Shown here: positions 3,280-60,059 of the stretch, piece by piece
Position numbering within the stretch: the first letter of the stretch is position 1
How the letters are laid out: every line of letters begins with the position of its first letter
IMG/VR virus record: IMGVR_UViG_2936390555_000003
Coordinates: 1 to 64,000 of that record
Source: a virus
Lineage: Duplodnaviria; Heunggongvirae; Uroviricota; Caudoviricetes
DNA: 64,000 bases
Strand: one strand, 5' to 3'
The notes under the pieces: model-generated
What the model saw: the letters and a program-made list of their open reading frames with translations, nothing else
What the model was told of the DNA's origin: nothing
Databases searched by the model: none
Program-made: the position numbers and the translations under genes

Positions 3280-3298
3280 TTGTGAGAGGACATGACAC

Positions 3299-10309: not shown

Positions 10310-11724
10310 GTGCAGAATATTATGGTATAGGTGGTAACAGCTGCAACCTTGGTTCCATCAATCTTTATAACATGATTGATGACAAGTTCACTCGCGAAGC
10401 GCATGTGAACTATGAACGCTTGGGAACTGTCGTAAACATTGCTGTTCAGGCACTCGATGAAATCCTTACTTATGGCTATGGTATGCAGCCATTAGATCTG
10501 AATCGCAAGGTCATTGATGACTGGCGCAGCATAGGACTTGGTATCTTCGGTCTTGCGGATGCACTGGTTGCTATGGGTATACGTTATGGCAGCAAGGAGT
10601 CAATTGAATTTGTCTCTGATGTCATGGAACACATCATGCTCTATGCCTTGGAAACATCATCAGACCTGGCTCATCACTATGGCTCATTCAGAAAGTATGA
10701 TTTCGAGAAGATTTGCGAGTCTCAGATAATCAAAGCTTTCCCTTACATGAGGGATAAAATAGAAATGGATGGGCTCCGTAATGGCTCACTGATTTCCATC
10801 GCTCCAACAGGCACTATTTCCCTGTTTGCCGGGCGGTTCACTGGTGGTGTGGAGCCTATGTATCAGGTGGCATACGAGAGAACCTCCCATTCCACTGAGG
10901 ACGAAGGAAAGACCTTCTTTGTCTATGCTCGTGGCGTGGAAGACCTCCTGAAATTCCATGGGATTGACCCTCAGAAAATCACGGTGGACGAGATTAAGGC
11001 ACGGTTCCCATTTGTTATTGAGTCTCATGAGGTGCCATGGAAAGAGCGTGTGGCTCTCCAGGGTGTAATGCAGGATTACGTTGACAACTCCATCAGCTCC
11101 ACGGTAAACCTGCCTAACAGTGCAACATGGGAAGATATTCGTGACATCTACATGTTTGCATGGGAGCAGGGGCTCAAGGGAATAACCGTGTTCCGTGATG
11201 GGTGCAAGCGTGGCAATATCCTTGGCGTATCTAAGGATGAGCCAGTTGAGTCAATGTATAACATGGTTGAACCGCTGAAGCGTGGCAGTACCTATCGCGT
11301 TGATGGCTCCACATTCAAACAGCGGACAGCCTGTGTTCCTTCCATGTATGTCACGGTGAACAAGTCAGACACAGGCGACCTCATGGAGGTATTCACTAAT
11401 GCCAGCGGTGGTTGTCAGGCCAACATTAATACCATTACTCGCCTGGTTTCCCTTTTACTACGCGCTGGTGTCAAGCGTGACATTGTAATCGAGGAGCTTC
11501 GTGAGAATCAGTGTCCTGCATGTCAGGCTCTTAGAAGGCAGGGAAAATCCCTTTCCCTGAGCTGCGGTAATGCCATTGCAGATGCCATGACAGCCATGCT
11601 GGACGATGAATCTACCGTGGAGCATGATGGCTACCTGGTATGCCCTGAGTGTGGCAAGCATACCCTTAGACCAGAGGGTAAATGCTTTACATGCAGTAAC
11701 TGTGGCTACAGCAAATGTGATTGA
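10310..11724 (+). CDS. nrdJ: NrdJ exon 2
   Basis: In-frame continuation CAEYYGIGGNSCNLGSINLYNM..., with the same C-x10-CNLGSINL spacing as NrdJ active-site loops. C-terminal zinc ribbon CPECGK...CFTCSNCGYSKC. Confidence 0.8.
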
Positions 11725-29514: not shown

Positions 29515-30159
29515 ATGGCAAGAGGAAATCCAAATCCAAAACCATTAGCTCCAAGGAGGGGCAGTGCGACAAGTCCTCACATGGAAGCTCCAGGCAAGAG
29601 CATGATTCAGATATACAATCTGACTGGCATGGTAAGGGAAATGAGACTCAAAGGAAAAAGCTATAGAGCCATTGCTGATTACATTAATAGCAATAAGCTC
29701 ATACCAAATGGCTATGTCCTTTCTTATAACAGCGTGGTTCGCTGGTGTGCCAATAATGGCCTGGGCGGAACCATAGAAGCAACTTCTGATACTGAGGCCG
29801 TCAATACATACAATATCAATTGCAAGCTGTTAGCCATGTACCGCGAGGCACTTGATGGGTTGCAGCTCAGGCTCGATGAAGCCAATAGCAATCCTGGCGG
29901 TACAAAGATTTCTGAGTACAACAAGATTGTTGATGGCATAGCCAAGATGGGCTTTCAGATCCAGCAGCTCACAGCGAAAATCGGTGAGATGCAGGAGCAG
30001 GTCTATAGATATGAAACTGCTTCCAAGGTAATCGAAATCATCATGGCTAAAATAAGTGTCCTGCTTCCTCAAGAGGATTATGAGGAAATCAAGGCCAAGC
30101 TGAGGGACGACCCGATTCTCTGCGAGGCACTGAAGACAATCGCACCGAGCAACGTATGA
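29515..30159 (+). CDS. terS: terminase small subunit (HTH-containing), putative
   Basis: Strong RBS AAAGGAGGTACATC. HTH-like LKGKSYRAIADYINSN. Position immediately upstream of the terL region. No in-frame TAG. Confidence 0.55.
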   Translation: MARGNPNPKPLAPRRGSATSPHMEAPGKSMIQIYNLTGMVREMRLKGKSYRAIADYINSNKLIPNGYVLSYNSVVRWCANNGLGGTIEATSDTEAVNTYNINCKLLAMYREALDGLQLRLDEANSNPGGTKISEYNKIVDGIAKMGFQIQQLTAKIGEMQEQVYRYETASKVIEIIMAKISVLLPQEDYEEIKAKLRDDPILCEALKTIAPSNV

Positions 30160-30165
30160 GGAGGA

Positions 30166-30756
30166 ATGTGTATGCTATGGTTCATATTTTATCCGATGAA
30201 CCTGATGCTTTCCATATTGTGCTATCTCACAAATTGGTTGGCAGCGCTGTTCGCTGATGAGCGTGGTGAGCTTCATGGCTCATGGCTCTACTGGCAGACA
30301 TGGGATGATTCATTGGATGTGGAGTGGTTCGTGAAGGAAACTGTTCCCAAGATTTTCAGGTACGACTTTGACAAGCACTATGTCAGTACCAGGGAGGCTC
30401 CTGAGTACCTCAAGCACCTGGGCAGGGATAAAGGCGCTGTCAAATGCATTAATAATGAATTCACATTGAAGGAACGCATCCAGCGGTATTTCTGTCGAGT
30501 GCTTTGGCTGTACCGTAATAACGGTTATGGCTTTGCCTTCTACTGGTTTGGCAATGGGTGTGTTGGCAACCTGCTTGCAACCAGGAAATTCAAGTATGGT
30601 ACGCTGGTATACGATAGGTTCAATCCTATCTGGGGGCCATGGAAGCTGTCTGGCAAGATTGGCTGGTTTGAATTCCTTGCTGGCTGGAAACTTGCCACGG
30701 AATCCGGTGCCTTCAAATGGGCAATGATAACAGGAAGAATTTTGATTAGAAAGTAA
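30166..30756 (+). CDS. hypothetical Trp-rich membrane protein (196 aa)
   Basis: RBS GAGGAGGAATG. N-terminal hydrophobic segments. No in-frame TAG. Confidence 0.55.
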   Translation: MCMLWFIFYPMNLMLSILCYLTNWLAALFADERGELHGSWLYWQTWDDSLDVEWFVKETVPKIFRYDFDKHYVSTREAPEYLKHLGRDKGAVKCINNEFTLKERIQRYFCRVLWLYRNNGYGFAFYWFGNGCVGNLLATRKFKYGTLVYDRFNPIWGPWKLSGKIGWFEFLAGWKLATESGAFKWAMITGRILIRK

Positions 30757-30759
30757 GCT

Positions 30760-30781
30760 CTGCAAATGCAGGGCTTTTTCT
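30760..30781 (+). terminator. weak stem-loop (CTCTGCA-AAT-TGCAGGG) + CTTTTTC, possible attenuator before the tRNAs
   Basis: Short GC stem followed by a T-run. Immediately precedes the suppressor tRNA. Confidence 0.3.
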
Positions 30782-30783
30782 AT

Positions 30784-30871
30784 GGAGCCATGGCAGAGTG
30801 GTTTATTGCAGCGGTCTCTAAAACCGATGATGTTCACGCATCCGTAGGTTCAAATCCTACTGGCTCCGCCA
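30784..30871 (+). tRNA. amber-suppressor tRNA, serine type: tRNA-Ser(CUA), class II with 16-nt variable arm
   Basis: Cloverleaf: acceptor GGAGCCA/UGGCUCC; U8; D-stem GCAG/UUGC with G18G19; anticodon stem CGGU/ACCG; loop CUCUAAA (anticodon CUA at 30818-30820); variable arm UGAUGUUCACGCAUCC (GAUG/CAUC stem); T-arm GUAGG-UUCAAAU-CCUAC; discriminator G73; CCA encoded. SerRS identity elements present (G1-C72, G2-C71, A3-U70, C11-G24, long arm, G73). Anticodon loop equals bacterial tRNA-Ser(CGA) with G35 changed to U. Confidence 0.8.
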
Positions 30872-31032
30872 TAAGAACAATAAGCTGCCATGCATCCCCA
30901 TTGTCCGGGGAACCGCAAGCGCAGTACTAAAGCATAAGAGGGCATGTGAGTCATGAATCACGAATGGTAATCCATTCAGAGTATGGGTTGCAAAACGGCT
31001 ACATGAGGTTCGCCCTTACTCATGTATCACAT

Positions 31033-31107
31033 GGTTCGTTAGCTTAGTTGGTAGAGCATCTGACTTTTAATCAGAAGACCTGGGTTCAAATCCTAGACGA
31101 GCCACCA
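31033..31107 (+). tRNA. tRNA-Lys(UUU)
   Basis: Acceptor GGUUCGU/ACGAGCC; D-arm GCUU-AGUUGGUA-GAGC; anticodon stem UCUGA/UCAGA with loop CUUUUAA (anticodon UUU); T-arm CUGGG-UUCAAAU-CCUAG; discriminator A; CCA encoded. Confidence 0.8.
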
Positions 31108-31430: not shown

Positions 31431-31553
31431 ATGGAAGAAAAGAATCGCAGACCTCGCCATGTGAAAAAGGGCAAGGATCTGCGCAGACATGTGAAGGACA
31501 GGGATGACTACAGGGCAGCCAAGAAAGAAATATTTGAGCATAGAGCACGATGA
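31431..31553 (+). CDS. small basic protein (40 aa; MEEKNRRPRHVKKGKDLRRHVKDRDDYRAAKKEIFEHRAR), tentative
   Basis: ATG 3 nt after the upstream stop. Overlaps the next start (ATGAATG). Coordinates hand-derived. Confidence 0.3.
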   Translation: MEEKNRRPRHVKKGKDLRRHVKDRDDYRAAKKEIFEHRAR

Positions 31554-32506
31554 ATGACTTGGTTACAACGATAGACGATAGAGAAGCCGTGACATCCAGC
31601 CGTGTCGTGGCAACAGCCTTTGAAAAAAGGCATGACAATGTTTTGCGAGACATAAGGGGTCTCCTCAAAATTGAGGATACCCAAGGAATGTTCTACAAGA
31701 CTACATATATCAATAAGCAGAATGGACAGAAGTACACGGAGTACCTCATGAACCGCGATGGGTTTGCCATACTGGTCATGGGGTTCACGGGAGCTAAAGC
31801 CCTTGAGTGGAAAATGAAATTCCTGAATCAGTTCAACGCCATGGAATCCGTCATCAGACAGCACGGTCTCGAAGGGAAGGTGCAGAAGTCTCTTGATGCC
31901 ATATCTGACCTGCGAAAGCAATTGAAGGACTCAGGCATACTGAGGGAGTACATAGCTCCCCATCATTTCTTTGACCACCTGGCAGCTCGATGGAAGGAAG
32001 CAACGCACCGTGAGCGCATAAGGGACTTCTATGATGATATTGGTTCTTACGCTGGCGTGAATGTTCCTTATAGCAACATGATAAACATTACAGTCAAGGA
32101 TTGGCTGTTGAATCATGTTGGACTCAGTACCATTGAGGAGCTTGTGATTGGGCTGGAAACACATACGATTACATATTCTAACCGAGGCAAGCCAGTGTCA
32201 AAGCATGGTGTCTTCGGGAACAAAACTGAATGGACAAAGATTGTTAATGAGTTCGGCGGTCGATGTGCTTATTGCGGAGCTGAGGGAACGCCATTGATTG
32301 CCGAACATATCATTTCACAATCCGCGCTGTCCAAAGACCACCCTGAGAAAGTTGACTTGATAGGAAACATTATTCCTGCCTGTCAGCAATGCAACCGATA
32401 GAAATACACGACCGACTTTGAGAAATGGTTCCCAAAGCAGCCATTCTACTCAAAGGCACGGCACAAGAAGATAATAGAACACATGGAGAAGTATGAGGTG
32501 AAGTGA
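31550..32506 (+). CDS. Rha-family regulatory domain fused to HNH endonuclease; contains 1 in-frame TAG (32399-32401)
   Basis: N-terminal Rha motif TSSRVVATAFEKRHDNVLRDIRGLL. C-terminal HNH motif CAYCGAEGTPLIAEHIISQ...NIIPACQQCNR. The frame continues through TAG for 34 more codons to TGA 32504-32506. HNH next to terL is typical. Confidence 0.6.
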
Positions 32507-32507: not shown

Positions 32508-34130
32508 TTGGCAGAGAACATCATGAGAGAAATCTTTGGCAACAAGCTTCGCAGGGATGCAGAAGTCGGCTCCATGAAAGACAAGTGCGCCCATGACTTC
32601 AAGCTGTTCTGCGAGTATTATCTGGCGGATAGCTTTGGATAGCCCTGGAGCCACAAGTTCCATGACTGGCTGATTGACAAGCTGGTGAGCATAACCTTTG
32701 ACCATAGGGATGATGAAACGAGAACAGTGGTAGCATCGCCTCGTGGTCATGCAAAGTCAACACTCATATCCTTTGGGTATGTACTTTGGCTGATAGTGTA
32801 TAACTACAAGAAGTTCATCGTTATTGTCTCGGCTACTGGCACGGTATCAAAGCAGTTCCTACTGAATATCAGGACAGCCCTTGAGACAAACCAGCGATTG
32901 CGACAGGATTTCGGTGACCTAACCAGCGATGACCTATGGAATAACACGGAGCTTCTTACGCAGAACAAAGTGTTTGTCACTGGTCGTTCGGCAGGACAGC
33001 AGATGCGAGGACTGAACTTTAATGGAACACGACCGGACATCGTTATCCTTGATGACTTGGAAACTCCTGAGCAGGTGGCAAGTCCTGCGCAAACACGTGA
33101 CCTTGAGAAATGGTTTAACTCAGATGTTCTTCCTATGGGCAGCATCAGTGCTGACTTCATTTACATTGGCACAGTGCTTTCATATGAAAGCCTTTTGTAC
33201 CACATGCTGACCAATGCTGGCTACAGCTCATGGACACGCAAGAGGTTTCAGGCGGTAATTGAATTTTCCAGGAGCCCATTGTGGGACGAATGGGAAACCA
33301 TCATTACAGACCTGGAGCGTGGCGACCATGCGTATGACGATGCGGTGGCATTTTACAATGAGCACAAGGAAGAAATGCTTGAGGGCACGGAAGTCCTCTG
33401 GCCAGACCAGCGACCTGATATGTACAGGTATCTCATGGAACGCAGGATAGCCGATGAGGAAAGCTTTGCCAGCGAGTACATGAATGACCCACAGACCGAG
33501 AACACAAGAGTCTTTAAGACCAAGTGGCTTGAGGATAACTATTATGTCGATGCGCCTGACATTCGGGAGATGTGCATTGCCATTGACCCGGCGGTATCAG
33601 CGAAGCGCAAGAATGACTATAGTGCCATTGTTGCTGTGGGGCGTGGCATGGATAACTACTTCTATGTACTGGAAGCCGATGTACAGAAGCGCACCCCTGA
33701 TAAGATTATTGAAGATGCCAAGGAGATAATCGCTAGGTACTACAAGTACAAGCCTAGCATTGTCGTGGAGACCAATCAGATGCAAGCATTCTTTAGCAGT
33801 ACCTTGAAGCGAGATATGGTTAATGCTGGAATATACCTTGACTGGATAGAAGTCTATCGTAAGTCAGGGGACAGCAAGAGCAGTCGTATAGAGAGTCTGG
33901 TACCGCACATAAAGAATGGTTACATAAAATTCAAGGCAAGTCAGAAGATATTGCTTTCACAGCTAAGGAATTATCCAAAGGGACATGATGATGCTCCCGA
34001 CTGCTTGGAGTCAGCGTTGGCTCCGATGCTGAGTACAAACAAAACATCGTTTGGCTTCAGTAGTGCAGGGGCATCTCCGAAGCACGGTGGAACTTTTGAC
34101 TTCCTCAAGAAAGCGATAGGAATGAGGTGA
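32508..34130 (+). CDS. terL: terminase large subunit; 1 in-frame TAG (32640-32642)
   Basis: RBS GAGGTGA before TTG 32508 (alternative ATG 32523). N-terminal segment MREIFGNKLRRDAEV...YYLADSFG-TAG-PWSHKFHDWLIDKL is continuous with ORF 32685..34130. Walker A ASPRGHAKST, Walker B DIVILDDLE. Nuclease domain in the C-terminus. Confidence 0.85.
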
Positions 34131-37541: not shown

Positions 37542-37727
37542 ATGGCAAGAACTACTAAGGCAACCACTAAGGTTGCAGAAAAGGAAAACATCGTTACTCA
37601 GGAGTATGAACTGCTTGAGCAGTACAAGGACTTCACGCACATCATGGTGAATGGTACACTTGTCCCTGTCCATGGTGGCAAGGTTATCCTGGGTAATCCT
37701 GATATGGCAAAAGGATTATTGAAATGA
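37542..37727 (+). CDS. hypothetical small head-associated protein (61 aa)
   Basis: RBS GAAGGAGAATTGAT. Confidence 0.5.
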   Translation: MARTTKATTKVAEKENIVTQEYELLEQYKDFTHIMVNGTLVPVHGGKVILGNPDMAKGLLK

Positions 37728-38284
37728 GTTACATAAAGGAAAGCGAGATACCAATCTACTGCGGTCTTGTCCGTGGCGTGACCATGGAGCATGTGGAAGC
37801 AGCGACAACTTTGATTGATGCGTACAAAGGTACTAGCTTTCTCCCGGTTCAGCATGTGGAGCGTGTGGAGCTGAAGCAACGCCGTGGGGAATACCGTGGC
37901 AAGCTTAATCATTTCCCTCGCATCTGCATTGATAAAATCACAGCCAAGGCTCGCAGTATTTTCGGTGAACAGAAATTGGAACTCCCGGTGGATTGCATCG
38001 ACTTTGACGATGACCTTTCGTTGTACTTCACGTTTACCATGCCTCGTGAGCTGATGTTCAGGCAGGTTCCATAGAACATAAACATTGTTTATCACAGTGG
38101 CTACAATGTAATCCCTGAACAGCTCAAGAGGGCGTGTGGCATCCTTGCTTGCAATATCAAGCAGATGGGCGGTGTCATGCGGTGGAAGCAACGTGATGAC
38201 TACGACATAAAGGTTACTCTGTCAGACGAAGGCGTGTTCACAGAAGAAATAAAGGTTATGCTTAGAGGAGTTGAGATACGATGA
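37724..38284 (+). CDS. head-tail connector (gp6-like); 1 in-frame TAG (38072-38074)
   Basis: ORF 37724..38074 continues in frame after TAG: ...FRQVP-TAG-NINIVYHSGYNVIPEQLKRACGILACNIKQMGGV..., which matches the gp6-like C-terminal motif (ipe.lk.A.lll...). Ends at TGA 38282-38284, overlapping the next ATG. Confidence 0.55.
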
Positions 38285-38856
38285 GCAGTGTACTTGAATT
38301 TTACTCAGATAGACTTGAGCGATTACAGTGTGAGCGTGGCTTCATCGAGGAAGGGCTCATGCTGCGCAGAGGTAAAACTCAGAACCCATACACAATCTCT
38401 GACCACAAGAACGTCATTGTTCCTCTTGGGACGAAGATTGCAAATGGCGACCTCATAAAACGCATCGACCATGAGTTGCAAGACCAGTTTATCATCGTTG
38501 CAAAGCAGATTGGAGCTGACTGCGTATCCATGCAGGGCAAGCGTATCAATTCCTTTATTGATATTTACCAGATTAGCAACAAGCTGGATGACCATCATCG
38601 CAAGGTTGGCTTGAAGGAAGAGCTTGTTCTCAAGAATGTTCCTTCGTACTGCGAAGACCAATCAGCATACAATCAGTTCTATGATGCCGGTTATCTTCCA
38701 AAGGTTGTAAAGAAATTCTTTGTGCAGCCTGACGACAGAATAAAGGATATGCAGCGCATCAAGAGTGAAGATGGTGTATTCCAAATTGACGGTATCACCA
38801 AAGAAAAATACCGTGATGTTTGGGTAATACAGGTTTCGGAGGATGCCAGGAAATGA
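38281..38856 (+). CDS. hypothetical head/neck protein (191 aa)
   Basis: Operon context. No TAG. Confidence 0.55.
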   Translation: MSSVLEFYSDRLERLQCERGFIEEGLMLRRGKTQNPYTISDHKNVIVPLGTKIANGDLIKRIDHELQDQFIIVAKQIGADCVSMQGKRINSFIDIYQISNKLDDHHRKVGLKEELVLKNVPSYCEDQSAYNQFYDAGYLPKVVKKFFVQPDDRIKDMQRIKSEDGVFQIDGITKEKYRDVWVIQVSEDARK

Positions 38857-39722
38857 ATGAGAGGCTTTAGAAAAGAATGGAGAGATGCCTTCGCAAGTTT
38901 GCCCGTGCAAAGAAGAAGGAATTTTACCATAAGATGAACAAGACCGCAAAGCAGTACAAGAAAGATCGTGGTGAAATTCATTTTGAATCAGAGGTTTCTT
39001 CCACTATGGGTAAGGCAAAGTTATCATTAGCTGCCTATGGTCAGAGAGTATGGACATTCGAGTATGGCAAGGGTAAAGGCACTGGCACATTCGAGAAAAC
39101 GAATTATACTTTACCAACATCGTTCCATAAGACAAAAATATTCAGGCAATACACTGGTAATCCTGCGAGAAACCCAATGCGAAAAGTTTACCAGCTATAT
39201 GCCAATAGGCCTTCTAAGCGTAAAAACAAAATCACTGTTAGACGCAAGAGGGGGGATGTTGTTCAGGAATACGAAATGAGCTATCCAAAGCTTATCAGTA
39301 CACCGATTAAGAGCAATCGTGTAATGGATAAGAATGGGCTCATGAGGCTCATGACGAAGAAAGAACAACTTGCCGAAAGCAACATTGGCTGGAGACAGCA
39401 AATCATAGGATTGTTTACGATTTACTCTCGACCGGGTACTTACACCGACCTCGATGGTAAATAGCATACATCCGATGCTAAAGCTGTGTTCGACTTAGAA
39501 AAACCTAATAAGCATGGGGTACTAAAGAGGCCCAAGCTCTCTCATCCAGGTAGAGCCTATGTTACCAACTTGTTTGAATATGACTTTGTGCGAGAGAAGC
39601 CTCGGATATTCCCCGACAGGTCTAAAGCTCCTGATTGGACATTGCATGGCTTCTGCAAGCAAGCTAACGAGGAGATAAAGGAATACGCTGAAAACGTGTT
39701 TGAGGAATTAGGATTTAAATGA
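38853..39722 (+). CDS. hypothetical basic neck/tail protein; 2 in-frame TAG (38868, 39462) if started at 38853 (alternative start 38877)
   Basis: ORFs 38877..39464 and 39486..39722 share a frame and are separated only by TAG 39462-39464 plus 7 codons. RBS GGAGGATGCCAGGAA before ATG 38853. Confidence 0.45.
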
Positions 39723-40131: not shown

Positions 40132-40902
40132 ATGGCTAACGTAGCAAACATTTTGAACACCCCAGTATTGCTCCATGGTATCGGTAAGGGCGTACTCAAG
40201 ACCGTATAGGGCAAGATTCTTGAGTTCACCACTGCTCAGTCCATGAAGCTGAATGTTACCACCTCCTCCGAGGATGTATACGGTGGTGACTCCCTGTTCC
40301 CTCTGTACACCTACCTGACTCAGAAGGAAGGCACCGTTGAGATTACCAACGCTGACTTCAAGCTTTCCCAGGTTGATATTGCACAGGGTACCAAGACCAG
40401 CACTACTGGCAACAAGCGCAACTACATGGTAAAGATTACCAAGGACAGCTCCAAGCTGACCGATGATTCCGTTCCTGTAACTGGTGTTGAGGTTATTGCG
40501 ATGGTAGGTCCTGATGGTAAGAGCGTACCTGTAGCAACCGATGCTGGCGATGATGTTGTTGCAATTTCCGCTACCGGTGCGATTACCGTTGGCACTAACG
40601 TAACTCTGGATGAGGGCGAGTACAACGTATGGTTCCGTGCTGACAGCTCCGCATCCGTGGCAGCTGAGATGCTGAAGAACGCTATGCCAGAGGTATCCGA
40701 GTTCACTTGGATGTTCACCACCGAGGATGCAGATGGCAACAAGTATCAGATTGACATCTATGCCCGTCGTGTCCGTGCAAACGGTGAGCTGGCTATTGAG
40801 ACCGCACGTGATTCCGCAAGCACTCCTACCTTGACTGTCAAGATTCTTGACCCAGGCGATGGCAGGGATGACTTTGCAACCATTACTATCACTAAGCTGT
40901 GA
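40132..40902 (+). CDS. major tail protein, putative; 1 in-frame TAG (40207-40209)
   Basis: MANVANILNTPVLLHGIGKGVLKTV-TAG-GKILEFTT... runs in frame into ORF 40243..40902. Followed by a strong terminator (high-expression gene architecture). Precedes the G/GT chaperones. Confidence 0.55.
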
Positions 40903-41848: not shown

Positions 41849-42060
41849 AGGAAAAGACTGAATGGAGAAACCTATTTGCCTCCATTGTCCAGAACACTAG
41901 CATGACAATGGAGGATATAGGCAATCTCCGAATCAATCAGATGGAAGATTTATTGGAAGGTATGAATGAGAATGCGGAAGCATTGGAACGCGAGATGAAG
42001 GGCGAGGTAAAGCCACTGGAAGGCGATGCTGCCATTAGAAAACTTATGGGAGGGATGTAA
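41483..42060 (+). CDS. tail assembly chaperone G-T frameshift fusion product (-1 frameshift at 41831-41840)
   Basis: -1 frame reads ...KSDVKEKTEWRNLFASIVQNTSMTMEDIGNLRINQMEDLLEGMNENAEALEREMKGEVKPLEGDAAIRKLMGGM, ending just before the tape-measure ATG. Confidence 0.45.
41831..41840 (+). promoter_or_regulatory. programmed -1 ribosomal frameshift slippery site (A AAA AAA AAG)
   Basis: A9G run at the 3' end of the chaperone gene. The -1 frame is open for ~73 further codons (to TAA 42058-42060), encoding a plausible gpT-like extension. Confidence 0.5.
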
Positions 42061-42061
42061 T

Positions 42062-45000
42062 ATGGCCACAGAAAACGATAAGCCAAAACTTGGATTGGAT
42101 ATATCCATAAGCACAACGAGCGCATTTAACTAGGTTAGGCATCTGAAAGAAGAAATCCAGAAGCTCAAGAATTTAGCCGATAAAGGAATTGACTTCTCCG
42201 TAAACATTGGCAGTGTTATTAAGCAGGCGAACAGCGCACTCAAAGAGGCACGTAAATCTATTGATGACATCAAGAAGTCAGCAATGGAGGGTGGCAAACT
42301 CAAGCTTGAACTTTCAGAGACTGATATAGCAAAGATTAACCAGGGCATGACTGAGTTGCAGACTGCCATGACCAAGGCATCTACGCTGGGTATGGAGGCG
42401 TGGGCTAGAGTTGACCGCGGTATAACTAGGGCTCGCAAGAACCAGAGTGAATTTATGAGGGAAAGCTATCACACGAATTTCCAGAATTTCGCCGGTCAAT
42501 CTGAAGATCTCGTTCTGAAGACATAGAACGAAAATGTGAAGAATGCAATTGCCCATCAGATGAATAAGAAGTATTCTGAGTATGACTGGTCTGACCCGGC
42601 CAAGCTGGAAGAGGTGAGAAAAAAATTCTTTTAGCTTGTAGATTCATACAAAGATACTGCCGACCTCATGAATCCAGAGAGATTTGCAAGGTTTATTTCT
42701 GAGTATAGAGCTATAGTAGACCACGCACCTGCATCCGCGGATATAGGAGACTCCCTTAGAATATTAAAGGAGCGCAACATGGATAAAGTGTTCCAAAAGT
42801 ATTTCAAAGATACTCATATTGCAGGGATGGAAAACATTTTCAAACAGGTTGCTACGCTTGACGATAAGAACTTTGAGTCTATTAAACCGACAATAAAAGA
42901 GGCAATAGGTAATATACGTGAAGCAGGGGGTAACAGCTCTTTGTTCGCTCCACTGGCAAAGCAATACAAGGATAATCCTAGAATGCTTGATCTTTTACCA
43001 ATCTATCCTAATAAAATTATTGACTGGGACAAGATGTTATATGGCGAGGGCGCAACTAAGACCTCAGTAAATCTCGATGCACTGCATAAGGTAAGCGAGG
43101 CTTTGCGCCAGGCTATTATGGAAGTCGTTAAAAGCGTAGAGCAGATAAAGAACGCTGCTGCTACGACTGCTGTTTCAATGAATACGATAGCACCTTCATC
43201 GGCTTCTCCTGTACCGCCTGAGAAGAGCAATCTTGTAGTGCAGGTGAAGCAGGAGAACGATGAAATCCAGAAAGCCCTGAAGCAGCGTGAAGCTCTCTTG
43301 AAGCAGCTTAACGATATGAATAACCTTGTAGCTAAAAGGCCATACGAGCATCGCCTGGAAAAATTGGATAAACTGAATGCAACCCTGTCAACTAATGGCT
43401 ATGGCATACAGCTTCCAAGGTTCTATGCAAAAAGCGGTGACAAGGAAGCTACAAATGCAGCTTATGACAATTATCTCCGCGAGGCATCCGGTTACAATTC
43501 CATGCGCAAAGAGCTTACTTCCATGATGGAACGTGGTATCACGCCTACCAAGGAGCATTGGAATGAAATCAGGAATAACTATTTGTCCATGCTTGACTCC
43601 CTGAGGGAAAAGCGTTACAAGATTTCTCCGGTATCAGATGATTTTACTGGCGGAACCTATGAAAAGTTCCTTGCAAAAATGAGGGAGTTCCAGCAGACCG
43701 CAAAAGCAAATGGTATCGTACCTGTTACCGCTGATGCCCGTCAGGTCAACGAGAAAATTGCTGAGTTACGTAAAGCCTTGGCATCCCTGGAAGCATTTAG
43801 CATTAGGATTACAGCGAACACTGAGCCTATCATTAAGGCAGTTGACTCCGTGATTGCCAGATTGCAGTCTATGAAGGACGTGGCTATCACCGTAAATGCG
43901 AACACAAAGCCGTTCATAGAGGCGATAGATGCTTGCATGGCAAAGTGCAAAGAGCTCAAGCCAAATATAGAGTTCGATGCAGCAAAACTTAACACAGAGC
44001 TTGCAAAGATAAAAACTGTTCTCCCTATTGCTATTGACTTTGAGAAATATCGTGAGGAGCTTCAGAAAATCCAGAAGTACACCAATAGCTTACCACATAT
44101 GATACTCAAGGCTGGACTTGACACAAGCGAGTTCATTAAATCCGTTGAGGCTGCTAAAATTAAAGCCAAAGAAATAAAGGATATTCGTTTGAATATTGAT
44201 GCGAGCGGTGTTGAACCTGGCTATAACAAGTTCAAGGATTTCGTTGATTATGCATACAGGCACAATCCTATTGCAATTGGTGTTACAGTGAATGAAACTA
44301 GTCTCAGTGTTATTGACTTGTTGCTCAATAGGGTCCAGGCATTACAGTAGGCATCTAGGTTGCAGATTGATTTTAAGAAACTCTATGATGATATAAAGGT
44401 TCTTGAGCAGAACTGTCCTACCATTAAATTGCCTATCTCAATTGATAAAAATATGTTCAAGGAGCAGGTGGGTAAAATCGCTTCTCCAAAGATTTCCACT
44501 CAGCTCAAGATTGAACGACAGAAATTCCGTGATGAAATCAAAGATGTTGGCGAGAAACTTCCTAAGATAAAGGTGGGTATCGGAGTTGATGCAAAGGGGT
44601 TCCATGACGAAGTTAAGAACGTTGGCTCACAGCTTCCTACGGTAAAGGTTCCTGTTACAGTTGACTCGAAGTTCTTTAAGGACGAAACCGCACGCATACA
44701 GGAAATACTTGATACCATAAAACCCGTATCCATAAAGGTCAATGCTGACACACAGCAGTTCATTTCTACTATAAAGGAGTGCGTTGATGAGCTCCACAAG
44801 CTCAAGGACATAACCGTTACAGTAAAAGGTAAGAAGCCTAAAGAAAAAACAGCTGCTGTTACAGAGGATACTCCAAAGAAGGCTAAGGGGAAAGCCAAGA
44901 AGGAGATGGACTACGATGAGCTCCTTACTATGCTCAAGATAAATCAGTTTTCTGATGGTATATCGCAGAGTAAATCCACTGTAGGCGCAAGGCTCAAGAG

Positions 45001-48000
45001 CGTAAGGAACCTCCAGAGTGCAGCGATGCAAGGCGGATGGCAACCGAGCGCCGAGGATTTGGCATGGCTGGCAAATGAGCGCAATGCACTTGAACGGAAA
45101 AACGAAGCGGTCAAGCTGAACAGTACCAGACCTGGGACAAACCTTATTGACGAGTATATTCGCTTGAGAGAACAGGAGTCTAAAAGATTCTCTGAATAGC
45201 TCCGCAATCAGATGAACGAGCGTGTTAAGCAGGAAAACAAGATTACTGATGAGGAACTTGCTGCAACCAAAAGACAGCTTCGTAGAAATCTCAAGGAATG
45301 GCAAAAGAATAATACTGCAATTGCGAAGGCAAAAGAAGAAGCTCGTAAGAGAGAGTTAGCCAAGGAAGCTCAGGCTGCCAAAGAGCAGAAGGAATACAGC
45401 GACCGCACGGCAAAACTTCTTGTTCAGGAAAGATTCGCTCAAACAAAGGAACAGGAAAAGGCAGAGGAAAAAGCTCGCAAGCGTAGATTAGCTCAGGAAG
45501 CTCAGGCTACCAAAGAGCAGAAGGAGTACAGTGACCGCACGGCAAAGCTTATGACCCAGGAAACCAATAGGCTCCAGGCATTGAAGGATAAACTTGCAAA
45601 GCTTCAGAATGACATTACCATCTCCCAGCTTTCCGGCAAGAAGATTGCCATGGATTCCTGGCTGAGGAAGAGTGACAGGGAGGCCGAGCTTATCAATAGC
45701 ATCATGTCCATGGGTGGCACGGCAAGCGCGAAGTACAATGGCATCGCAGGATTCAAGGAATACGTTAAGCCTTGGAACCAGCAGGATAAACTCAAGACTG
45801 ACAATAAGGAATTGAAGGAAGCCCTTAAAACATACGAGCGTATCGAAGCCATCCTTGTACGCATCAGGAAAACAGGAATTATCCCTGATAATATCGACAA
45901 GTTGAAGCAGAAAGAATTGGAAGCAAGGTCAATCATTCAGAAGAGCTTTGGCGGAGCACTTGGTTCTCCTGCACAGCAAGCTGCCTTCAATGCAAATTAT
46001 CCGCAGGTATTGACACAGCAGAATATCGATGCTGCAAAGTCCGGCGCTGAGATAAGCAAGAGGCTCAAGGGTGAAATGCGGAGTGCCATGAGCGAGTTCA
46101 AGAGCCTCATAAAAGAGGTAAGGCGCGATGCGATAAATGGCACTGGTCGCTCTGAATACTACTTGGCAAACCGCAGTAGCAGGATTGCTGAGATACTCCA
46201 GGGAGTTGATAAGAATACCAGGAACGCTCTTTTGATGAGGTATGAGAATGATATTCATAGGGCATACGCAAACCCTGCTGACATTAACGCCAAGGCAATA
46301 GCCGAGGTAGAAAAGAGACTTGCAGAGCGTTGGCAGAAGTTTGATATGCTTGACAACGTCACTCCAAAGGCATATACAAATATGTATCAGTATCTCGTGA
46401 GAGCCGTAGAAAAAATTGGCTCCATGGGCGGCATGTACGATGGTCGCGTGCTGACCAAGACTCCGGAGGAGTACAAGGCAAGCTATGTGAGACCTTCGAC
46501 TGGTATAGATGAAGCTGCACGGAAGCAGCAGAATTTAAATGCTATTCAGGAAAGATACAACGCTGAACTTGAGAAGCAGAATGCCCTGATGACCTACGGC
46601 ACACTTCTTTCCCAGAAGCAGATTGATACTGCAATCAGGAAACTCGAAGCATTGCGCAAGAAATACGAGGAACTGGGCGGTGAGCGTAGCAAGCTTCAGC
46701 TGTCTGACATTGAAGCTGCTGGAACTACTGCTCGCGATGTGAACTCTGCAATCGTTGACCGCAATGTGAAAGCATGGAGCACGGATAATGTGGCAACCGT
46801 GTCCCAGGGCTTATCGCATCTCAGCGGAATGCAACAGGCCCAGTACAATGCATGGCTCCAGGACCCAAGCAAGAATAACCTGAAGAACCTTACGCTTACC
46901 ACAGCAGAGATGAGGAAGCTTAACAGGGAGGCCCAGCGTTATCAGCGTGTTGTCAACGACACCAATAAGACGATGGAAAGCCTTAATAATAAGATTCACA
47001 ATCATCTTTCCTGGATGACAAGCGGACTGTTCATTGGAACTATCTTTGCTATTCCTGCTGAGGTAATGAATCAGTGGAAAGAACTGGAGTATAGCCTCGC
47101 TGGTATCAGGCAGGTTATCACGGAAATCGAAAAGAACGAGGGAGGCAATGCGTTTAAAGAAGCATTTGATCTTATGGAGATTGCCAAAAAGAACGGCGTT
47201 GGCGTTGAGGAGACCATGGATGCAGCCAAGTCTATCGGTCGTATGTATGGCAAGAACCCTATCGACTCAAACGGTGTCGAAGAAAAGGGCGTTGGTATTC
47301 GCAATACAAACCTGATTACTTCACAGGCAGCGAAGATGGCAGTAGCCGATGCCTTCGATATGGAGAATGCATTCAAGGGATTGGAGGCAGCATTATCCCA
47401 GTGGAACTTGCAGACAGAGGACACAAACCAGCTTCTCATCAATACCAATCGTATACTGGAAGCATGGACTATCACAGCTCATGCCGGTGCTGCATCGGCT
47501 CAGGACATTGGGCAGGCAATTGAAATTGCTGGTACTGCCGCTGCAAATGCAGGCGTGTCATTCGAGTTCTTCAATGCCCTTGTTGCTACAGGTGTACGGC
47601 AGACTGCACGAAGCGGTAATGAAATCGGTCAGGCAATCAAGTCCATGATGGTTTCCATGCAGTCAAATAAATCCCTGAAAGCCTTGAAGGAATGGGGAAT
47701 AGAGTTGTATAATGTAAGCGAGGATGGCACGAAATCCATGCGCTCCATGGAGGACATTATTCTCGATGTATCCCTGCTCATGAACAATACGGCAAAAGAT
47801 ACCAGAGGACTGCTGACTACGCTGTCTGGTGGTAAATACCAGTATTCAAAAGTATCAGCAATGCTGGGCAATTATAAAGAATTGCTCCGCATGATGAAAC
47901 TCATTAACAACCCTAATGATAATCTCATGGAAGGCAAGCCTGGCTTATTCATCGACCAGCAGGTTGAAGTGCAGATGGACACCTTACAGAGAAAAATCAA

Positions 48001-51000
48001 TTCCATCAAAGCGGATGCACAAAACATCATATTTGACATTGGTGTAAACGCAGGTGGCTTGGATGCCCTCAAGTGGCTCGCTGACAAGATAGATGACATC
48101 ATTGTAGGTACACAGAAAATAGGGGATAAATGGGGAGAGACCGGTACTAAGATAGCTGGGGTAACAGTAGCAGTCTTGGCTTTCTATAAGGCTGTTGAAA
48201 AAATATAGGTAGCCATGAAGACATACGAGATGTACAAGGCTGCCTACAATGCTACTGGCAACACGTAGTTTTTCCAGTCACTTCTTGACAATAGAAAGAA
48301 GGAAATAGAGCTCAAGGCTTCTCAGAAAGTGGCGAGTGCCATGAGCGACAATGCTATTGTAGGTGGGAGAGCCGCTAGTACCGAAGCTAATACAATAGCA
48401 ACCAATGCTAATACAGCTGCGAGAACTGCTAATACCGCAAGCAATACTGCGAACACGGCAGCTACAGCGGAAAATACCGTGGCCAGCGCAGCGAATACAG
48501 CTAGGAGGGCAGCGAACACAGCTGCTACCGAAGCTAATACTGTAGCAACAGTTGCTAATGTCACGGCTCAAAGGTCTGCCGCTGGTGCAGCAACGGGAGC
48601 AGCCACTTCAATGGGTGTAATGGCTACCGCTGGCATGACTGCTCGTGCTGGCCTTGCTGCCCTGGGCGGCCCGCTTGGTGTTGCAATTACAGCTTTGACA
48701 ATCCTTATTCCTCTTGGAATAGAATATGCATCAACTCTGGGCGAAGAAGCAAACGCTGCAAAGAAAGCTGCGGATGCACTTGCCGAGAAGAATAATGCAG
48801 TAGACCAGGAAATTTCCAAGGCTAACCAGCGTGAGCACGCAGCTATAAGCCTGGCAAACGCTTACAATAATCTAAGTGTGCAGATAGCTAATGGCACCCT
48901 GCGCACCGAGGAGGCTCAGAAGGCCGAAGCAGAAATGGCTGACCTCAAGCATACGCTGATTGGTATAGTTGGTCAGGAAGCAGTGGCAATAGACGAAAAC
49001 GGCAGGATTAACATTGACACCATCAAGCGAATGAGTAAAGCTGAGAAACAGGCAGCTATTGATAAGCTCAGGGCTGACCGTGATAAGCTTGAGTCAGAAA
49101 AGGCTGAGACTCAGAATACTATTGAGCTGACAAAACAGCGCATTGAAGCTATCAAATCTGAGATTGAAGCCATGAGGGAGCGTGCTGGTGCCAGCAGTAC
49201 ATGGGATAAGATAGCTGCCTCCGTATACCGTGGAGCAGCTTGGTTTGCACATGCTACAGGTCAGACCACGGACGAAGAGTATGAAACCAATTTGGAAAAA
49301 GCAAACCTCCGTGAACAGGGCGTTCCCGCCGAAAAACTCGCTGAACTTGATATGGCAACCAAAAGGGTATCTGAGTTACAAGGTAATCTTGATAAGCTTA
49401 ACCCAAACATTGATACTCTGAATAATGCAATAGGAAACCTTACATCCCTTGCAGAAGAGGGAAGTCAGACGTACAACCATGGCGAAATAGAAGAGCCGGA
49501 GGAAAAAGCCTCCGCTGGTAAATCCGCTGGCTCAGACTCTCGCCAGAACAACATGCAGGACCCTCGCATCCTTGCGCATGTCAGTCGTATTGATGAAATC
49601 GCAAGCAATACCAGCAACCAGGTATCTCTGCTTAATGACATTAAGTCCCAGCAGGGTAACTCCAAGGAGCTTTCCATACAGACCTTCGATACATACCAGA
49701 GGGGCATCGACGAGCTCAAGGCTGAACGCCAGAGGCTCAACGATTACCTGTATACCAAGAACGTAAATGCGTTCAATGGTCAGTTCTCTGTAACCATTAG
49801 CGATACCGCTGCATCCGATGCGGTGGTCGAGGCTGCCATGCCGTATCTTGAGAAGACCATGGAAAATGGTACCGAGGGCTGTGTCGAGGCTGTTACCAAG
49901 ATTGGCGAAAAAACCAGCAGCTTCCTTGCGCAAGAACTCAAGAACGGTGTAGTCCGTGTGCCTGTTCTTGTATCCGATGCTGAGAACGCTGGCATACCTG
50001 TAGTTCCTTACGATGCCAATAATGTAGGTGCCGGGGATGTTATCGTGTACGACAATAATGACCATGTGGTTATGGCTGATGGCAAGGGAGGGTATGTAGG
50101 CAATAGCTCCGGACTGAATCGTGTTGTACATAGACCTGACTACACAGCTATGGGCGGTCAGGTTCCTACCCAGATTATCAAGACTGGCACCATTGCTGGC
50201 GAAAGAAAAGTCCAGTGGAGCGACAGTCTTGCCAATTATGCAATTGATAATGATGGAACCATGCTTGATGCTGGTACCTGGGATAAGGCAGGGCTCTCTG
50301 GGCAAATTAAACTCATTGAGCAGGCATTGCAGGTCAAGGGCCAGGAGAATAACGAGTTCCTCATGCAGTTCTCCAAGGTGCTACTTGTCGACCTCAAGGC
50401 TCTCAATGATGCCGATGCTAAAACCAGAAGCCTTATTACCCAACAGGCTAATCAGTGGTTCACCGACATGAACGCTGAGGTATCACAGGCAGGAACCACG
50501 GCATCCCAGAAGGGGAACCGTGAGCTGTTCATGCTTGGCTCAGGAGCTACCGAATATGACAAGGCTCGCATCGAGCTCCAGAAGAACACGGCTGAACTCA
50601 GTGCTATGAGTGAAATCGTGGAACGTAAGCAGACACAGGATCTGAAGAATACCGTTGCTGGCAAAGCGTTCCTTGACAGCTACCTGCAGAAGCAGATGAC
50701 TCAGCGCGACCTCCAGTTTAAAACCGTTGTGGCCATGTATAACGATGCAAAAGCAACCACTGACCATAATGTCAAGATGCGTGATTATGGGAACAATAAT
50801 ACCGATGACCGCATGGGTGTCAAGCGAGCCACGGATACCCTGGCAGATGCGATGGTACAGGTTGAGCTTCAGCGGAAACAGTTGGAGCTTGCGAGAGATA
50901 CGGACGAAAAGAATTACCAGGAAATCCGCAAGATGGAAGAGTCTTACAAGGATGCCCTGGAAGCACTTCGTACCGCACAGAGACAGTACAACCAGCAGGT

Positions 51001-52204
51001 GCTCGATGGATTCGAGCAGATAGCCGAGGACTTCATGTTCAACGGCAAGTCCTTCAGGGATATTATTGATAATCTCTGGCAGGACCTGGGCAAGGATGCA
51101 TTGAGGGCATTGTTCGGGCAGGATATTAGCGGTAATCATTCCTTCCTTGCAACCCTGCTTGGTATTGGAAAGCCTGATGAGGAAATGGCGAAGGCACAGG
51201 CACAGGAGGAGCTCAAGAATGTTCCGCTTATCAATAACACCAGTGCTACTGACAGGAACACCTTGGCAGTAAACCAGCTTACTCAGGCTATGCTTGGTCA
51301 GGCACTTACCCCGTTGGCTACTTCCAAGTATACGTTTGATGCTACACGAAATGCGTATGAATCCGCGAGACCATTCAGCTTGCAGGAGAACGCATGGAAC
51401 AATGCGGTAGCAACGACAGGCTTTGGCTCACAGCCTACCTACGATTTCGAGGCTGACATGAAGCAGTGGAAGCAGAGCAACGATTACCTGAACCGCACGA
51501 TGGCACAGTCGAATCGCTTGAACGCCACCGGGAACACCGAACAGAAGAAGAGCAATGATGCTCTTGGCAAGAACACCAATGCTAATCTTCAGGTGGCAAC
51601 CGGGCTCATGGGCATCGGCAATGCCTTTGCAAACGGTGACTGGCTGGGCGGTCTCCTTGGCATAGCTCAGGTGGGCATGGGCTTCGGTTGGTTCAAGGCT
51701 GACGGTGGCAAGTTTGCTGACGGTGGTGCACCAGCTGGCAAGGTCACCGGTGCTGGCACTGGTCGCAGTGATAGCATCCTTGCTTATCTTGCCAACAAGA
51801 ACAAGTTCGTATGGCTGTCCAATGGCGAATATGTCATCAACGAGAAATCAGCGAAGGCACTTGGATACGATACTCTCGATGCCCTCAATGGATATGCCAC
51901 TGGAGGCAGTCTGGATTCATCGCCTGTCAATCCAACACCGTACATTCCTACGATTAATCCGCAGGTAGCCAAGAAGGCTACAAGGATTTCCGGGAACAGT
52001 GCCACGGAAGCCCTGCTGAGAAAGCAGAATAAATACATGGCCGAGCAGAACTCCATGCTCAGGAACATGGGCGAGTCCGGGAACGGTCAGGTGGTTGTAC
52101 TGAATACCCAGGCATCCAGTGCAGATGTTATGAAAGCACTTCAGGAAAATCCTAGAGCTGTTCAGGCTATCCTTGGTCGACAGCAGAGAATGGGCTTTAG
52201 ATAA
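42062..52204 (+). CDS. tail tape measure protein, single ~3,380-codon reading frame with 7 in-frame TAG (42131, 42524, 42632, 44348, 45197, 48206, 48266)
   Basis: RBS GGAGGGATGTAAT before ATG 42062. ORF-track pieces 42284.., 42668.., 44360.., 45212.., 48329.. are all in one frame, separated only by TAG, with no RBS or credible starts. TMP features: coiled-coil repeats, ...LSWMTSGLFIGTIFAIPAEVMNQW...AGIRQV, hydrophobic GGPLGVAITALTILIPLGI, low-complexity ANTA repeats. Ends TAA 52202-52204. Confidence 0.7.
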
Positions 52205-53965: not shown

Positions 53966-54035
53966 GAAACGCCGTGGTGGCTGCAAGTGATTCGGGGGAG
54001 CTTCCATGCTCCCTCAGTAAGGAGGCATGAAAAAT

Positions 54036-55189: not shown

Positions 55190-55193
55190 TTGG

Positions 55194-59006: not shown

Positions 59007-59066
59007 ATGAGCAGATGGATATAAAGGAAGAAGTGGAGATACATGTTATCAGAGGAGGTAATGCAA

Positions 59067-60053: not shown

Positions 60054-60059
60054 GAGGAC

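Follow-up and report, generated by a model that had tools for sequence, protein, structure and literature searches.

A putative serine-type amber suppressor tRNA heads a late-gene block with in-frame TAG codons in a temperate phage

The DNA analyzed, referred to as the window, is a stretch of 64,000 nucleotides comprising positions 1 to 64,000 of the IMG/VR virus record IMGVR_UViG_2936390555_000003 (Caudoviricetes). Its central feature is a tRNA gene with the anticodon CUA, which reads the amber codon UAG, situated ahead of a block of late genes that use TAG in frame. ARAGORN called two tRNAs in the 64-kb window and placed the one with a CTA anticodon at exactly 30784-30871 (+), the position at which the original prediction, made from the sequence alone, had seen an amber suppressor. 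The Rfam tRNA model scored this gene with 56.6 bits (gathering score 29) and assigned the extra bases to the variable region; the label 'tRNA-Pyl' given by ARAGORN was taken as merely the tool's name for a CTA anticodon. The acceptor stem comprises 7 bp (GGAGCCA/UGGCUCC), U8 is present, the D-arm reads GCA-GAGUGGUUUAU-UGC with G18G19, and the anticodon loop is CUCUAAA. The variable region of 16 nt (UGAUGUUCACGCAUCC) forms a stem of 4-5 bp, and the T-arm is GUAGG-UUCAAAU-CCUAC, giving a canonical 7/5 acceptor/T geometry. All cloverleaf elements that had been predicted were thus read in the sequence, and only the description of the fold as clean has to be qualified, the uppermost pair of the anticodon stem (27-43) being a G·A mismatch.

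The closest relative of the window, the IMG/VR contig UViG_3300045988_145964 (L002), carries a sister copy of the tRNA that is 95.5% identical and differs at four positions. Two of these belong to a compensatory exchange in the T stem (A51-U63 to G-C), one converts G10-C25 to G-U, and one replaces the discriminator G73 by U73. In an RNAalifold analysis of 14 Ser-type sequences, composed of tRNA-Ser(UGA) genes and of CUA tRNAs of a class A (D-arm and anticodon arm common to the window's tRNA and phage tRNA-Ser(UGA) genes), compensatory double changes were found in 16 of 25 pairs, including four pairs of the variable arm, and four of the five predicted variable-arm pairs showed covariation. The compensatory exchange in the sister copy, together with this covariation, indicates that the fold is under selection.

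Late genes of the window contain 38 TAG among 9,806 codons (0.39%), next to 39 TCG, whereas none was found in 6,103 codons of early genes, a number that would contain about 24 if TAG were as frequent there as in late genes. All in-frame TAGs lie on the plus strand and downstream of the tRNA, and homology and reading frame run on across them in relatives. When TAG was read as sense, the longest ORF grew from 1,311 to 3,397 amino acids (aa). Genes of the window end nearly throughout in TAA or TGA; the early region has 24 TAA, 12 TGA, and three TAG stops (3 of 39 genes). The genes for portal, scaffold-like protein, and capsid have no in-frame TAG. The base following the in-frame TAGs (+4 position: G 14, A 11, C 6, T 4) corresponded to the codon-position-1 background and gave no context signal. 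The distribution of 38 late versus 0 early TAGs agrees with the prediction that TAG serves as a sense codon in the downstream late genes (Table 1). The tRNA does stand upstream of every TAG-containing late gene, as had been noted, the first of them starting at 31550; such a placement is already known for Sup-CTA genes (Mgcod preprint) and is in itself not new.

Table 1. Positions and properties of features in the 64,000-nt window
Feature	Position	Strand	Remarks
Tyrosine integrase	1-993	-	No in-frame TAG; ends in TAG (3-1); PHROG 1, E = 1.4e-47
XRE/cI-like helix-turn-helix (HTH) repressor candidate	1241-1576	-	Ends in TAG; read-through +54 residues; HTH by sequence reading
Early/middle region	1560-28202	.	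Genes for replication and nucleotide metabolism and a second integrase; 0 in-frame TAGs in 6,103 counted codons
DUF7338 membrane-like protein gene	30166-30756	+	Directly upstream of tRNA; Pfam PF24027, E = 6.5e-19
Terminator-like hairpin and T-run	30755-30783	+	9-bp stem, 5 G-C pairs, loop of 4; consensus scan
Putative amber suppressor tRNA, serine-type	30784-30871	+	88 nt, anticodon CUA, encoded CCA, G73, 16-nt variable arm
tRNA-Lys(UUU)	31033-31107	+	ARAGORN; Rfam 73.4 bits; neighbor in variable tRNA slot
Late-gene block using TAG as sense	31550-64000	+	35-38 in-frame TAGs, ~9,800 codons; ORF maps, family annotation
HNH/Rha	31550-32506	+	1 TAG, at 32399
TerL, large terminase	32523-34130	+	1 TAG, codon 40, 32640-32642; PHROG 38, E = 4e-107
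Head-tail adaptor	37724-38284	+	1 TAG
Gene 38853-39722	38853-39722	+	2 TAGs
Tube-like	40132-40902	+	1 TAG
Tape-measure/lysin fusion ORF	42026-52204	+	3,392 aa, 7 TAGs
NlpC/P60		+	2 TAGs
Gene 54027-54395	54027-54395	+	1 TAG
Hub	54395-55189	+	2 TAGs
Tail protein (Phage-tail_3)	55110-59006	+	1,298 aa, 6 TAGs
Gene 59043-59486	59043-59486	+	1 TAG
Gene 59499-60500	59499-60500	+	3 TAGs
Gene 60514-60882	60514-60882	+	3 TAGs
Mtd-like target of diversity-generating retroelement (DGR)	60882-62327	+	2 TAGs
DGR reverse transcriptase (RT)	62716-63738	+	1 TAG

Among relatives drawn from IMG/VR, ENA, and Logan, in-frame TAGs were confined to a clade at ≥85% identity (63 TAGs over nine loci, TAA or TGA never being in frame), and all 18 relatives at ≤67% identity had none. 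A CUA tRNA was present in every member of the recoded clade in which the tRNA slot was captured (L002/L118, L099). These comparisons indicate that recoding and suppressor co-occur only in one young clade. A megablast search with 8 kb around the tRNA against GenBank phages returned tRNA-sized matches only. The genome of one relative (L126) equals the window plus ~12.2 kb and closes into a circle of ~76 kb. In this additional segment, which encodes an endolysin-like protein, a Bro/ANT protein, and a DnaE with an intein-like insert, no tRNA, aminoacyl-tRNA synthetase, or release factor was found, so that the CUA tRNA is the sole suppressor candidate in the ~76-kb genome.

Interrupted genes may also arise by decay or misassembly of a defective prophage, in which case the tRNA would be a passenger. 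The phage is temperate, as judged from its integrases, and one related contig (L099) is maybe chimeric. Against such an origin, only TAG and never TAA or TGA interrupts genes, the TAGs are restricted to late genes, and seven to nine relatives, assembled independently from different samples, have their TAGs at the same positions. Moreover, homology and frame continue over every TAG, and the tRNA evolves compensatorily. We regard decay or assembly error as highly improbable.

In E. coli, the identity set of seryl-tRNA synthetase (SerRS) consists of a long variable arm, G73, G1-C72, G2-C71, A3-U70, and C11-G24. The CUA tRNA of the window has this set in full, so the statement that all identity elements are present holds for this copy; it does not extend to the 95.5%-identical L002 copy with its U73. 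Among the 14 related Ser-type sequences, G1-C72 and C11-G24 were invariant and G73 was found in 13. The pairs 2-71 and 3-70 varied, and for this reason they may not be determinants in the real host. The tRNA matched 549 GenBank phage records and, among the matches listed, the full-length ones that have an annotation were tRNA-Ser. The best full-length BLAST relatives (~77% identity) were ordinary phage tRNA-Ser genes, e.g., from T4-like phages. A blastn search of the tRNA against E. coli genomes gave no match. The alignment to bacterial tRNA-Ser that had been proposed as a check showed that the anticodon loop is identical to that of the annotated E. coli tRNA-Ser(CGA) (gene adjoining mtfA) except for a single G35 to U change, as expected for a supD-type loop; the A36-A37-A38 context of UCN-reading Ser tRNAs is kept. 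The assignment to the serine type is thus upheld by the identity elements, by the annotation of the closest relatives, and by a global identity of 67-73% to phage tRNA-Ser(UGA) versus 47-56% to tRNA-Tyr and 43-52% to tRNA-Leu.

Long variable arms also occur in bacterial Tyr and Leu tRNAs, one contig (L107) carries a Leu-type CUA tRNA, and the ARAGORN label nominally names pyrrolysine; a suppressor of the Tyr or Leu type (supF/supP) or a tRNA for pyrrolysine or selenocysteine was therefore weighed as well. Bacterial tRNA-Leu and tRNA-Tyr have A73, as did all Leu and Tyr tRNAs extracted here, whereas the window's tRNA has G73; its D-arm matches that of phage Ser tRNAs, and the identity values given above separate it from both types. 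In the likelihood test described below, Tyr (-79.8) and Leu (-74.7) fell into the worst tier. A tRNA-Pyl has a 3-nt variable loop, atypical D and T loops, and a pylS/pylBCD system, and tRNA-Sec has an 8/5 geometry and the anticodon UCA. The 7/5 geometry, the 16-nt variable arm, the canonical G18G19, and the T-loop UUCAAAU argue against both, and no pyl or sel genes were seen among the annotated ORFs. The probability of any of these four assignments appears almost negligible.

The residue inserted at UAG was approached through non-recoded relatives, which were gathered via TerL (IMG/VR and GTDB genomes), via the tail protein, and from genomic contexts. The TAG site HNH-284 aligned with Ser in 8 of 8 relatives (AGT or AGC), and TerL-40 aligned with Ser in all 8 IMG/VR relatives at 59-71% identity and also in a Mitsuokella prophage (L020), the codons in this group being AGT, AGC, or TCC. 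At site g53378-155, Ser was found in each of the five diverged loci that align (TCC or TCA). None of the Ser codons at these three sites (AGT, AGC, TCC, TCA) is a one-step neighbor of TAG. In the tail protein (120 homologs), sites 414 and 839 had Ser in 77 of ~118 homologs each, and site 268 had Ala in 115 of 119. Other TAG sites aligned with mixtures of Ser, Thr, Asn, and Ala in diverged relatives. Because distant TerL homologs (24-39% identity) carry Leu, Arg, Lys, or Val in the TerL-40 column, the information given by this site is limited to the subfamily at ≥59% identity. In one 71% relative (L003:10001-10114, 10113-11576), the TerL alignment breaks at codon 38, two codons before the window's TAG, and resumes in another frame, which could be due to a frameshift or an assembly error.

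A likelihood test based on the same alignments used the probability of a homolog residue given the query residue for all 20 amino acids and scored the residues aligned to TAG. For 18 sites, the first set gave values of -50.2 for Ser, -54.3 for Ala, -54.6 for Thr, and -59.6 for Gln, and an enlarged set gave -50.9 (Ser), -54.5 (Ala), -55.7 (Thr), -57.7 (Asn), and -60.0 (Gln). With a stricter filter (16 sites), the values were -41.1 (Ser), -47.0 (Ala), -47.5 (Thr), and -52.0 (Gln). Ser ranked first, approximately 4-6 nats above Ala and 9-11 nats above Gln, which ranked fourth to fifth. Calibration by resampling recovered the true residue in ≥99.7% of 18-site sets. Of the true-Ser sets, 94-97% had Ser on top at the observed margin; with any other tested residue, not one of 3,000-4,000 sets did.

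Codon exchanges among near-identical phages (L002/L012, L019, L099-L104; several independent assemblies with most TAG positions in common) were evaluated in addition. In the 20 exchanges observed, TAG alternated eight times with TCN Ser codons (TCA five times, and TCC, TCG, TCT), six times with CAG or CAA, and six times with others. TCA is two steps away from TAG, and its dominance therefore fits a synonymous path from TAG via TCG to TCA. CAG is the only common one-step transition neighbor of TAG and ~8 times more common than TCG in late genes, so that exchange between CAG and TAG is to be expected under any meaning of the codon. The spectrum was the same in a second lineage carrying a Ser-type CUA tRNA (L108/L112/L117), where TAG aligned with Ser (TCT, AGT), Thr, Asn, and Ala, plus two swaps with Gln; in its portal protein, KPXNPDGS was aligned with KPSNPDGS (TCC).

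Precedent speaks for Gln (genetic code 15), inserted by a mischarged form of this tRNA or by another Gln-accepting suppressor, as TAG-to-Gln alone is reported for TAG-recoded phages in the literature covered. CUA anticodons can attract the E. coli glutaminyl-tRNA synthetase (GlnRS) through U35, and the Gln codons among the close-relative exchanges, together with the two X/Q swaps of the L112/L117 lineage, would fit as well. At TAG-aligned positions of diverged homologs, however, Gln was found in 1-2 of ~118 sequences at three tail-protein sites and in none at HNH-284, TerL-40, and g53378-155. TAG did not align with Gln in homologs in the way that marks code 15; the conserved TAG-aligned sites were Ser. 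Ser was never top-scoring in true-Gln resamples, the traffic between CAG and TAG would arise under any decoding, the tRNA is of type II with G1-C72, and the ~76-kb genome has no other tRNA-CUA. Decoding as Gln is thus very unlikely, and the comparisons support Ser as the residue that best explains the TAG sites. The predicted decoding of UAG as Ser accordingly gains support from three sides, i.e., the identity of the tRNA, the first rank in the likelihood test, and TCN as the most common exchange between near-identical phages.

Several observations weigh against the reading of TAG as Ser. Some TAG sites align with conserved residues other than Ser, namely Lys (g37724-117), Glu (g54027-27), Gly (g54395-79), and Ile/Val (g59043-18). 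Homologs have 23-28% Ser at TAG sites versus 43-48% at true Ser sites, and the Ser-versus-Gln margin lies near the 5th percentile of true-Ser resamples, so that the TAG sites vary more than an average Ser site does. Informative homologs were available for 18 of ~35 TAG sites, and 6 of the 20 close-relative exchanges involved Gln codons. To these are added, on the side of the tRNA, the G27·A43 mismatch and the U73 in place of the determinant G73 in the sister copy. Finally, genes with 6-7 TAGs need efficient suppression, and the annotated ORFs of the window and of L126, a set that takes in only part of the small ORFs, yielded no countermeasure against release factors (RFs) and no gene for an aminoacyl-tRNA synthetase or an RF.

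Part of these observations would be accounted for by mixed decoding, in which UAG is read mostly as Ser and partly by near-cognate host tRNAs or terminated by RF1, the TAGs acting as attenuators of late yield. The variability of the TAG sites, the alignment of some with conserved Lys, Glu, and Gly, and the missing RF1 countermeasure among the annotated ORFs point in this direction, as do the young age and sparseness of the recoding and an integrase that ends with three TAGs in four codons, as if one TAG were leaky. Proteins with 6-7 TAGs (tape measure, tail protein), on the other hand, have to be completed, a requirement that speaks for efficient decoding. The strict conservation of Ser in TerL and HNH speaks for a defined residue, and a second residue has no positive evidence on its side. 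Mixed decoding is therefore considered unlikely. All in all, on computational evidence, the CUA tRNA is very probably a functional TAG-to-Ser suppressor that derives from a tRNA-Ser, would be charged by the host SerRS, and would enable translation of the late genes.

The tRNA is preceded by a hairpin (30755-30776) that overlaps the stop codon of the upstream gene and ends 7 nt 5' of the tRNA. With its 9-bp stem and T-run, this attenuator-like element, which had been pointed out beforehand, is real, and it may act as a leaky or antiterminated terminator. The gene directly upstream had been taken for terS; it encodes a DUF7338 protein (Pfam, E = 6.5e-19), and no terS was recognizable. It lacks in-frame TAGs and ends in TAA, and in the relatives L014 and L017, DUF7338 genes adjoin amidase/lysis genes. 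No family was matched by the preceding gene (29515-30159). The tRNA-Lys(UUU) that had been expected downstream was called by ARAGORN at the same position. The tRNA slot upstream of TerL is variable, with CUA and Lys in the window (30784-31107), CUA, Phe, Met, and Cys in L002 (8104-8585), and CUA, Phe, and Cys in L099 (576-1053). Where the slot was captured, non-recoded relatives had Gln(UUG), Thr(UGU), or Tyr(GUA), the Mitsuokella prophage (L020:6424-7887) among them, or else had no tRNA. Two non-recoded relatives had tRNA-like sequences to which ARAGORN assigned irregular two-base anticodons, 'at' and 'tt' (L005:6925-7011, 87 nt with a long arm, and L015:8190-8259, respectively).

Bacterial SerRS takes no account of the anticodon; what it recognizes is the long variable arm together with the acceptor stem and the discriminator. 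Charging of the CUA tRNA with serine by the host SerRS would therefore be expected despite its anticodon. The charged tRNA would read UAG as Ser and render the late genes translatable (HNH, terminase, head-tail, tube, tape measure, baseplate/tail, and DGR), and the early, replication, and lysogeny genes would be translatable in the standard code of the host. As the tRNA is located at the 5' end of the block and directly behind the hairpin, its expression probably requires transcription into the late operon. The suppressor would then accumulate once transcription enters this operon, possibly via read-through of the hairpin, and the code switch would act as a translational gate on late genes. 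The same gating model has already been proposed for Gln-recoded phages (Borges et al., 10.1101/2021.08.26.457843; Mgcod, 10.1101/2022.06.29.495998).

The genes for the integrase (1-993) and the cI-like repressor candidate (1241-1576) both end in TAG. In a relative (L126:17837 region), the TAG of the integrase is followed by TGT-TAG-TAG, and another 165 codons or more then pass without an in-frame TAA or TGA. Both proteins would be lengthened by suppression, and perhaps inactivated, while the late genes are unlocked.

A pattern search in IMG/VR yielded 16 contigs with the same anticodon arm and a long variable arm, and extraction with ARAGORN revealed several classes of CUA tRNAs. In three loci (L105, L114, and L115), the class A CUA tRNA directly adjoins a tRNA-Ser(UGA) gene. 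On the short L105-L120 loci, recoding could not be told from ORF coverage computed with alternative stop sets, and unfiltered pairwise exchanges between L105, L114, and L115 were dominated by spurious frames. A viral contig from an isolate genome (L110; IMGVR_UViG_2617271071_000004, tRNA at 7318-7407) has the E. coli tRNA-Ser(CGA) by mtfA except for G35 to T, i.e., a supD-type allele. The 80-kb contig L107 (IMGVR_UViG_3300028833_005988) has the Leu-type CUA tRNA at 8377-8461, with A73 and a GGCGGAAcUGGcAGACGC D-arm like that of the L114 tRNA-Leu. Its in-frame TAGs lie in replication genes, among them a primase/helicase with eight and a DnaE-like polymerase that reads FMXEVQ where bacterial DnaE has FYLELQ; L107 may be a TAG-to-Leu phage. 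In L106/L120, L111, L113, L116, and L119 (46-233 kb, mostly 144-233 kb), CUA tRNAs of ~90 nt have a type-I-like D-arm and a long variable insert and are often near a long-arm tRNA-Tyr(GUA).

Taken together, a broader reading may be put forward tentatively, as a possibility rather than an expectation. Synthetases blind to the anticodon could constitute a general and overlooked route by which phages change their code, and the clade of the window would then be a young TAG-to-Ser code near its origin, inside a phage family that otherwise keeps the standard code. Ser-type CUA tRNAs occur in at least four to five unrelated IMG/VR lineages (contigs up to 110 kb), L107 would be a probable TAG-to-Leu case, and in the temperate Ser clade the code switch may extend to lysogeny genes.

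The window encodes two tyrosine integrases, a Gp2.5-like single-stranded DNA-binding protein, a primase/helicase, an exonuclease, a split large subunit of ribonucleotide reductase (RNR), a dUTPase, and a peptidase; the late block, with TerL, portal, capsid, and tape measure, comes after them. This gene content identifies it as a temperate siphovirus-like phage, and the tRNA is phage-encoded as originally stated, given the TerL, portal, capsid, and tape-measure genes, the integrases, and the replication module around it. The closest match in GTDB genomes (TerL 96%) was a contig binned into an Anaerovibrio sp. metagenome-assembled genome, and a 59% relative is a prophage in the chromosome of Mitsuokella multacida DSM 20544. 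Anaerovibrio and Mitsuokella both belong to the Selenomonadaceae, which, on the basis of this binning and the distant prophage, is the likely host family. Record names (e.g., STEW19, GAIO21) suggest rumen and pig-gut data sets. In L099 (ENA ERZ27234167 k141_159340), a phage part, whose head and tube genes have 92-98% identity to the window, is followed at ~10.7-16.9 kb by a bacterial segment, and the GC content rises from 46.9% to 54.5% just after the terminator of the tube gene. The bacterial segment encodes Sua5, PrmC, a class-I RF, DUF1385, L31, and a ClpB-like ATPase, and the adjacency to prfA-prmC is curious. Either a chimeric assembly or a genuine junction could underlie the transition, and L099 was left out of the host inference because of its possibly chimeric assembly.

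The 3,392-aa ORF was also considered as three genes fused by read-through of TAG stops. This was rejected, since single TMP+SLT proteins of 2,330-2,629 aa occur elsewhere and L012 aligns continuously at 93%. The C-terminal region of the ORF is homologous to SLT/lysin proteins of relatives, in which the functions are distributed over three genes or joined in fusions of 2,330-2,629 aa. The large RNR subunit is split into two ORFs ~200 nt apart (9302-10099 and 10309-11721), and the DnaE-type polymerase of L126 (13119-17659) is also split and has an intein-like insert. The DGR at 60882-63738 comprises the Mtd-like target (Pfam mtd_2nd) and an RT with a YSDD motif (RVT_1). Between and within these genes lies a repeat pair of 139 nt with 83% identity, positioned like variable and template repeats (VR 62164-62302, TR 62454-62592). 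As both target and RT have in-frame TAGs, DGR activity would also depend on the suppressor.

A TAG-to-Ser phage would represent a second and mechanistically simpler route to recoding, i.e., an anticodon mutation in a tRNA with an anticodon-blind synthetase. Prodigal-gv, Pharokka-gv, and Mgcod render recoded TAG as Gln, which would be wrong at every TAG of the clade, including the conserved Ser of terminase and HNH. With a recoded clade at ≥85% identity and non-recoded relatives at ≤67%, the system offers a rare view of TAG entering a genome, mostly from CAG (by transition) and TCG (as a synonymous change). Natural and presumably efficient Ser (possibly Leu) amber suppressors from phages of anaerobes are candidate parts for synthetic biology. 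The TAG-ended integrase and repressor genes suggest the hypothesis that a genetic-code switch is tied to the lysis-lysogeny decision.

The classical serine-inserting amber suppressor of E. coli, supD, is the serU tRNA-Ser with its anticodon changed from CGA to CUA. It shares with the window's tRNA the loop CUCUAAA, the long variable arm, G73, G1-C72, G2-C71, A3-U70, C11-G24, and A36-A37-A38. The window's tRNA differs by an overall identity of ~67%, by being phage-borne, and by facing dozens of natural TAGs rather than laboratory nonsense mutations. Ordinary phage tRNA-Ser genes have the same type II architecture and read UCN, whereas the window's tRNA reads UAG; a phage gene for tRNA-Ser(UGA) or tRNA-Ser(CGA) may be its ancestor. 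Natural allo-tRNAs charged by SerRS or alanyl-tRNA synthetase have non-cognate anticodons, including stop-reading ones, and engineered CUA versions insert Ser at amber codons in E. coli (Mukai et al. 2016, PMC5389517). They similarly exploit anticodon-blind synthetases for codon reassignment. In contrast to the 7/5 tRNA of the window, which is coupled to a recoded block, allo-tRNAs, found chiefly in soil bacteria, have an unusual acceptor/T geometry of 8/4 or 9/3 and are not known to recode whole genomes (PMC5389517). In synthetic supD-gated circuits (Anderson et al. 2007, PMC1964800), a Ser amber suppressor likewise licenses translation of an amber-containing gene, but these are artificial and have a single target gene.

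Where phage and host use different codes, only TAG-to-Gln and TGA-to-Trp were observed by Borges et al. (10.1101/2021.08.26.457843), who proposed GlnRS and tryptophanyl-tRNA synthetase as the susceptible enzymes; TGA-to-Gly has been reported for phages of code-25 hosts. The expectation that a Ser suppressor would be unusual is consistent with this survey. A full-text literature search whose scope did not extend to the final version of the Borges et al. paper (2022) or to Ivanova et al. 2014 found no report of TAG-to-Ser in a phage, and an earlier mention is possible. These findings point to a new meaning for TAG in phages within a recoding architecture that is itself known. Phages with code 15 (crAss-like, Lak, Jade/Sapphire, and the temperate Garnet and Topaz; 10.1101/2021.08.26.457843, PMC9523058, 10.1101/2022.06.29.495998) equally have a Sup-CTA at the 5' end of the recoded block and TAGs in late/structural genes. 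They also resemble the window phage in that early and lysogeny genes can be read in the standard code, the integrase is free of in-frame TAG yet may end in TAG, the host keeps to the standard code, and recoding appears over short evolutionary distances. The window phage differs in that the residue appears to be Ser and the suppressor derives from a type II tRNA-Ser with an anticodon-blind synthetase, and in being a ~76-kb temperate siphovirus-like phage of likely Selenomonadaceae in which the recoding is sparse (0.39% of late codons) and restricted to a clade.

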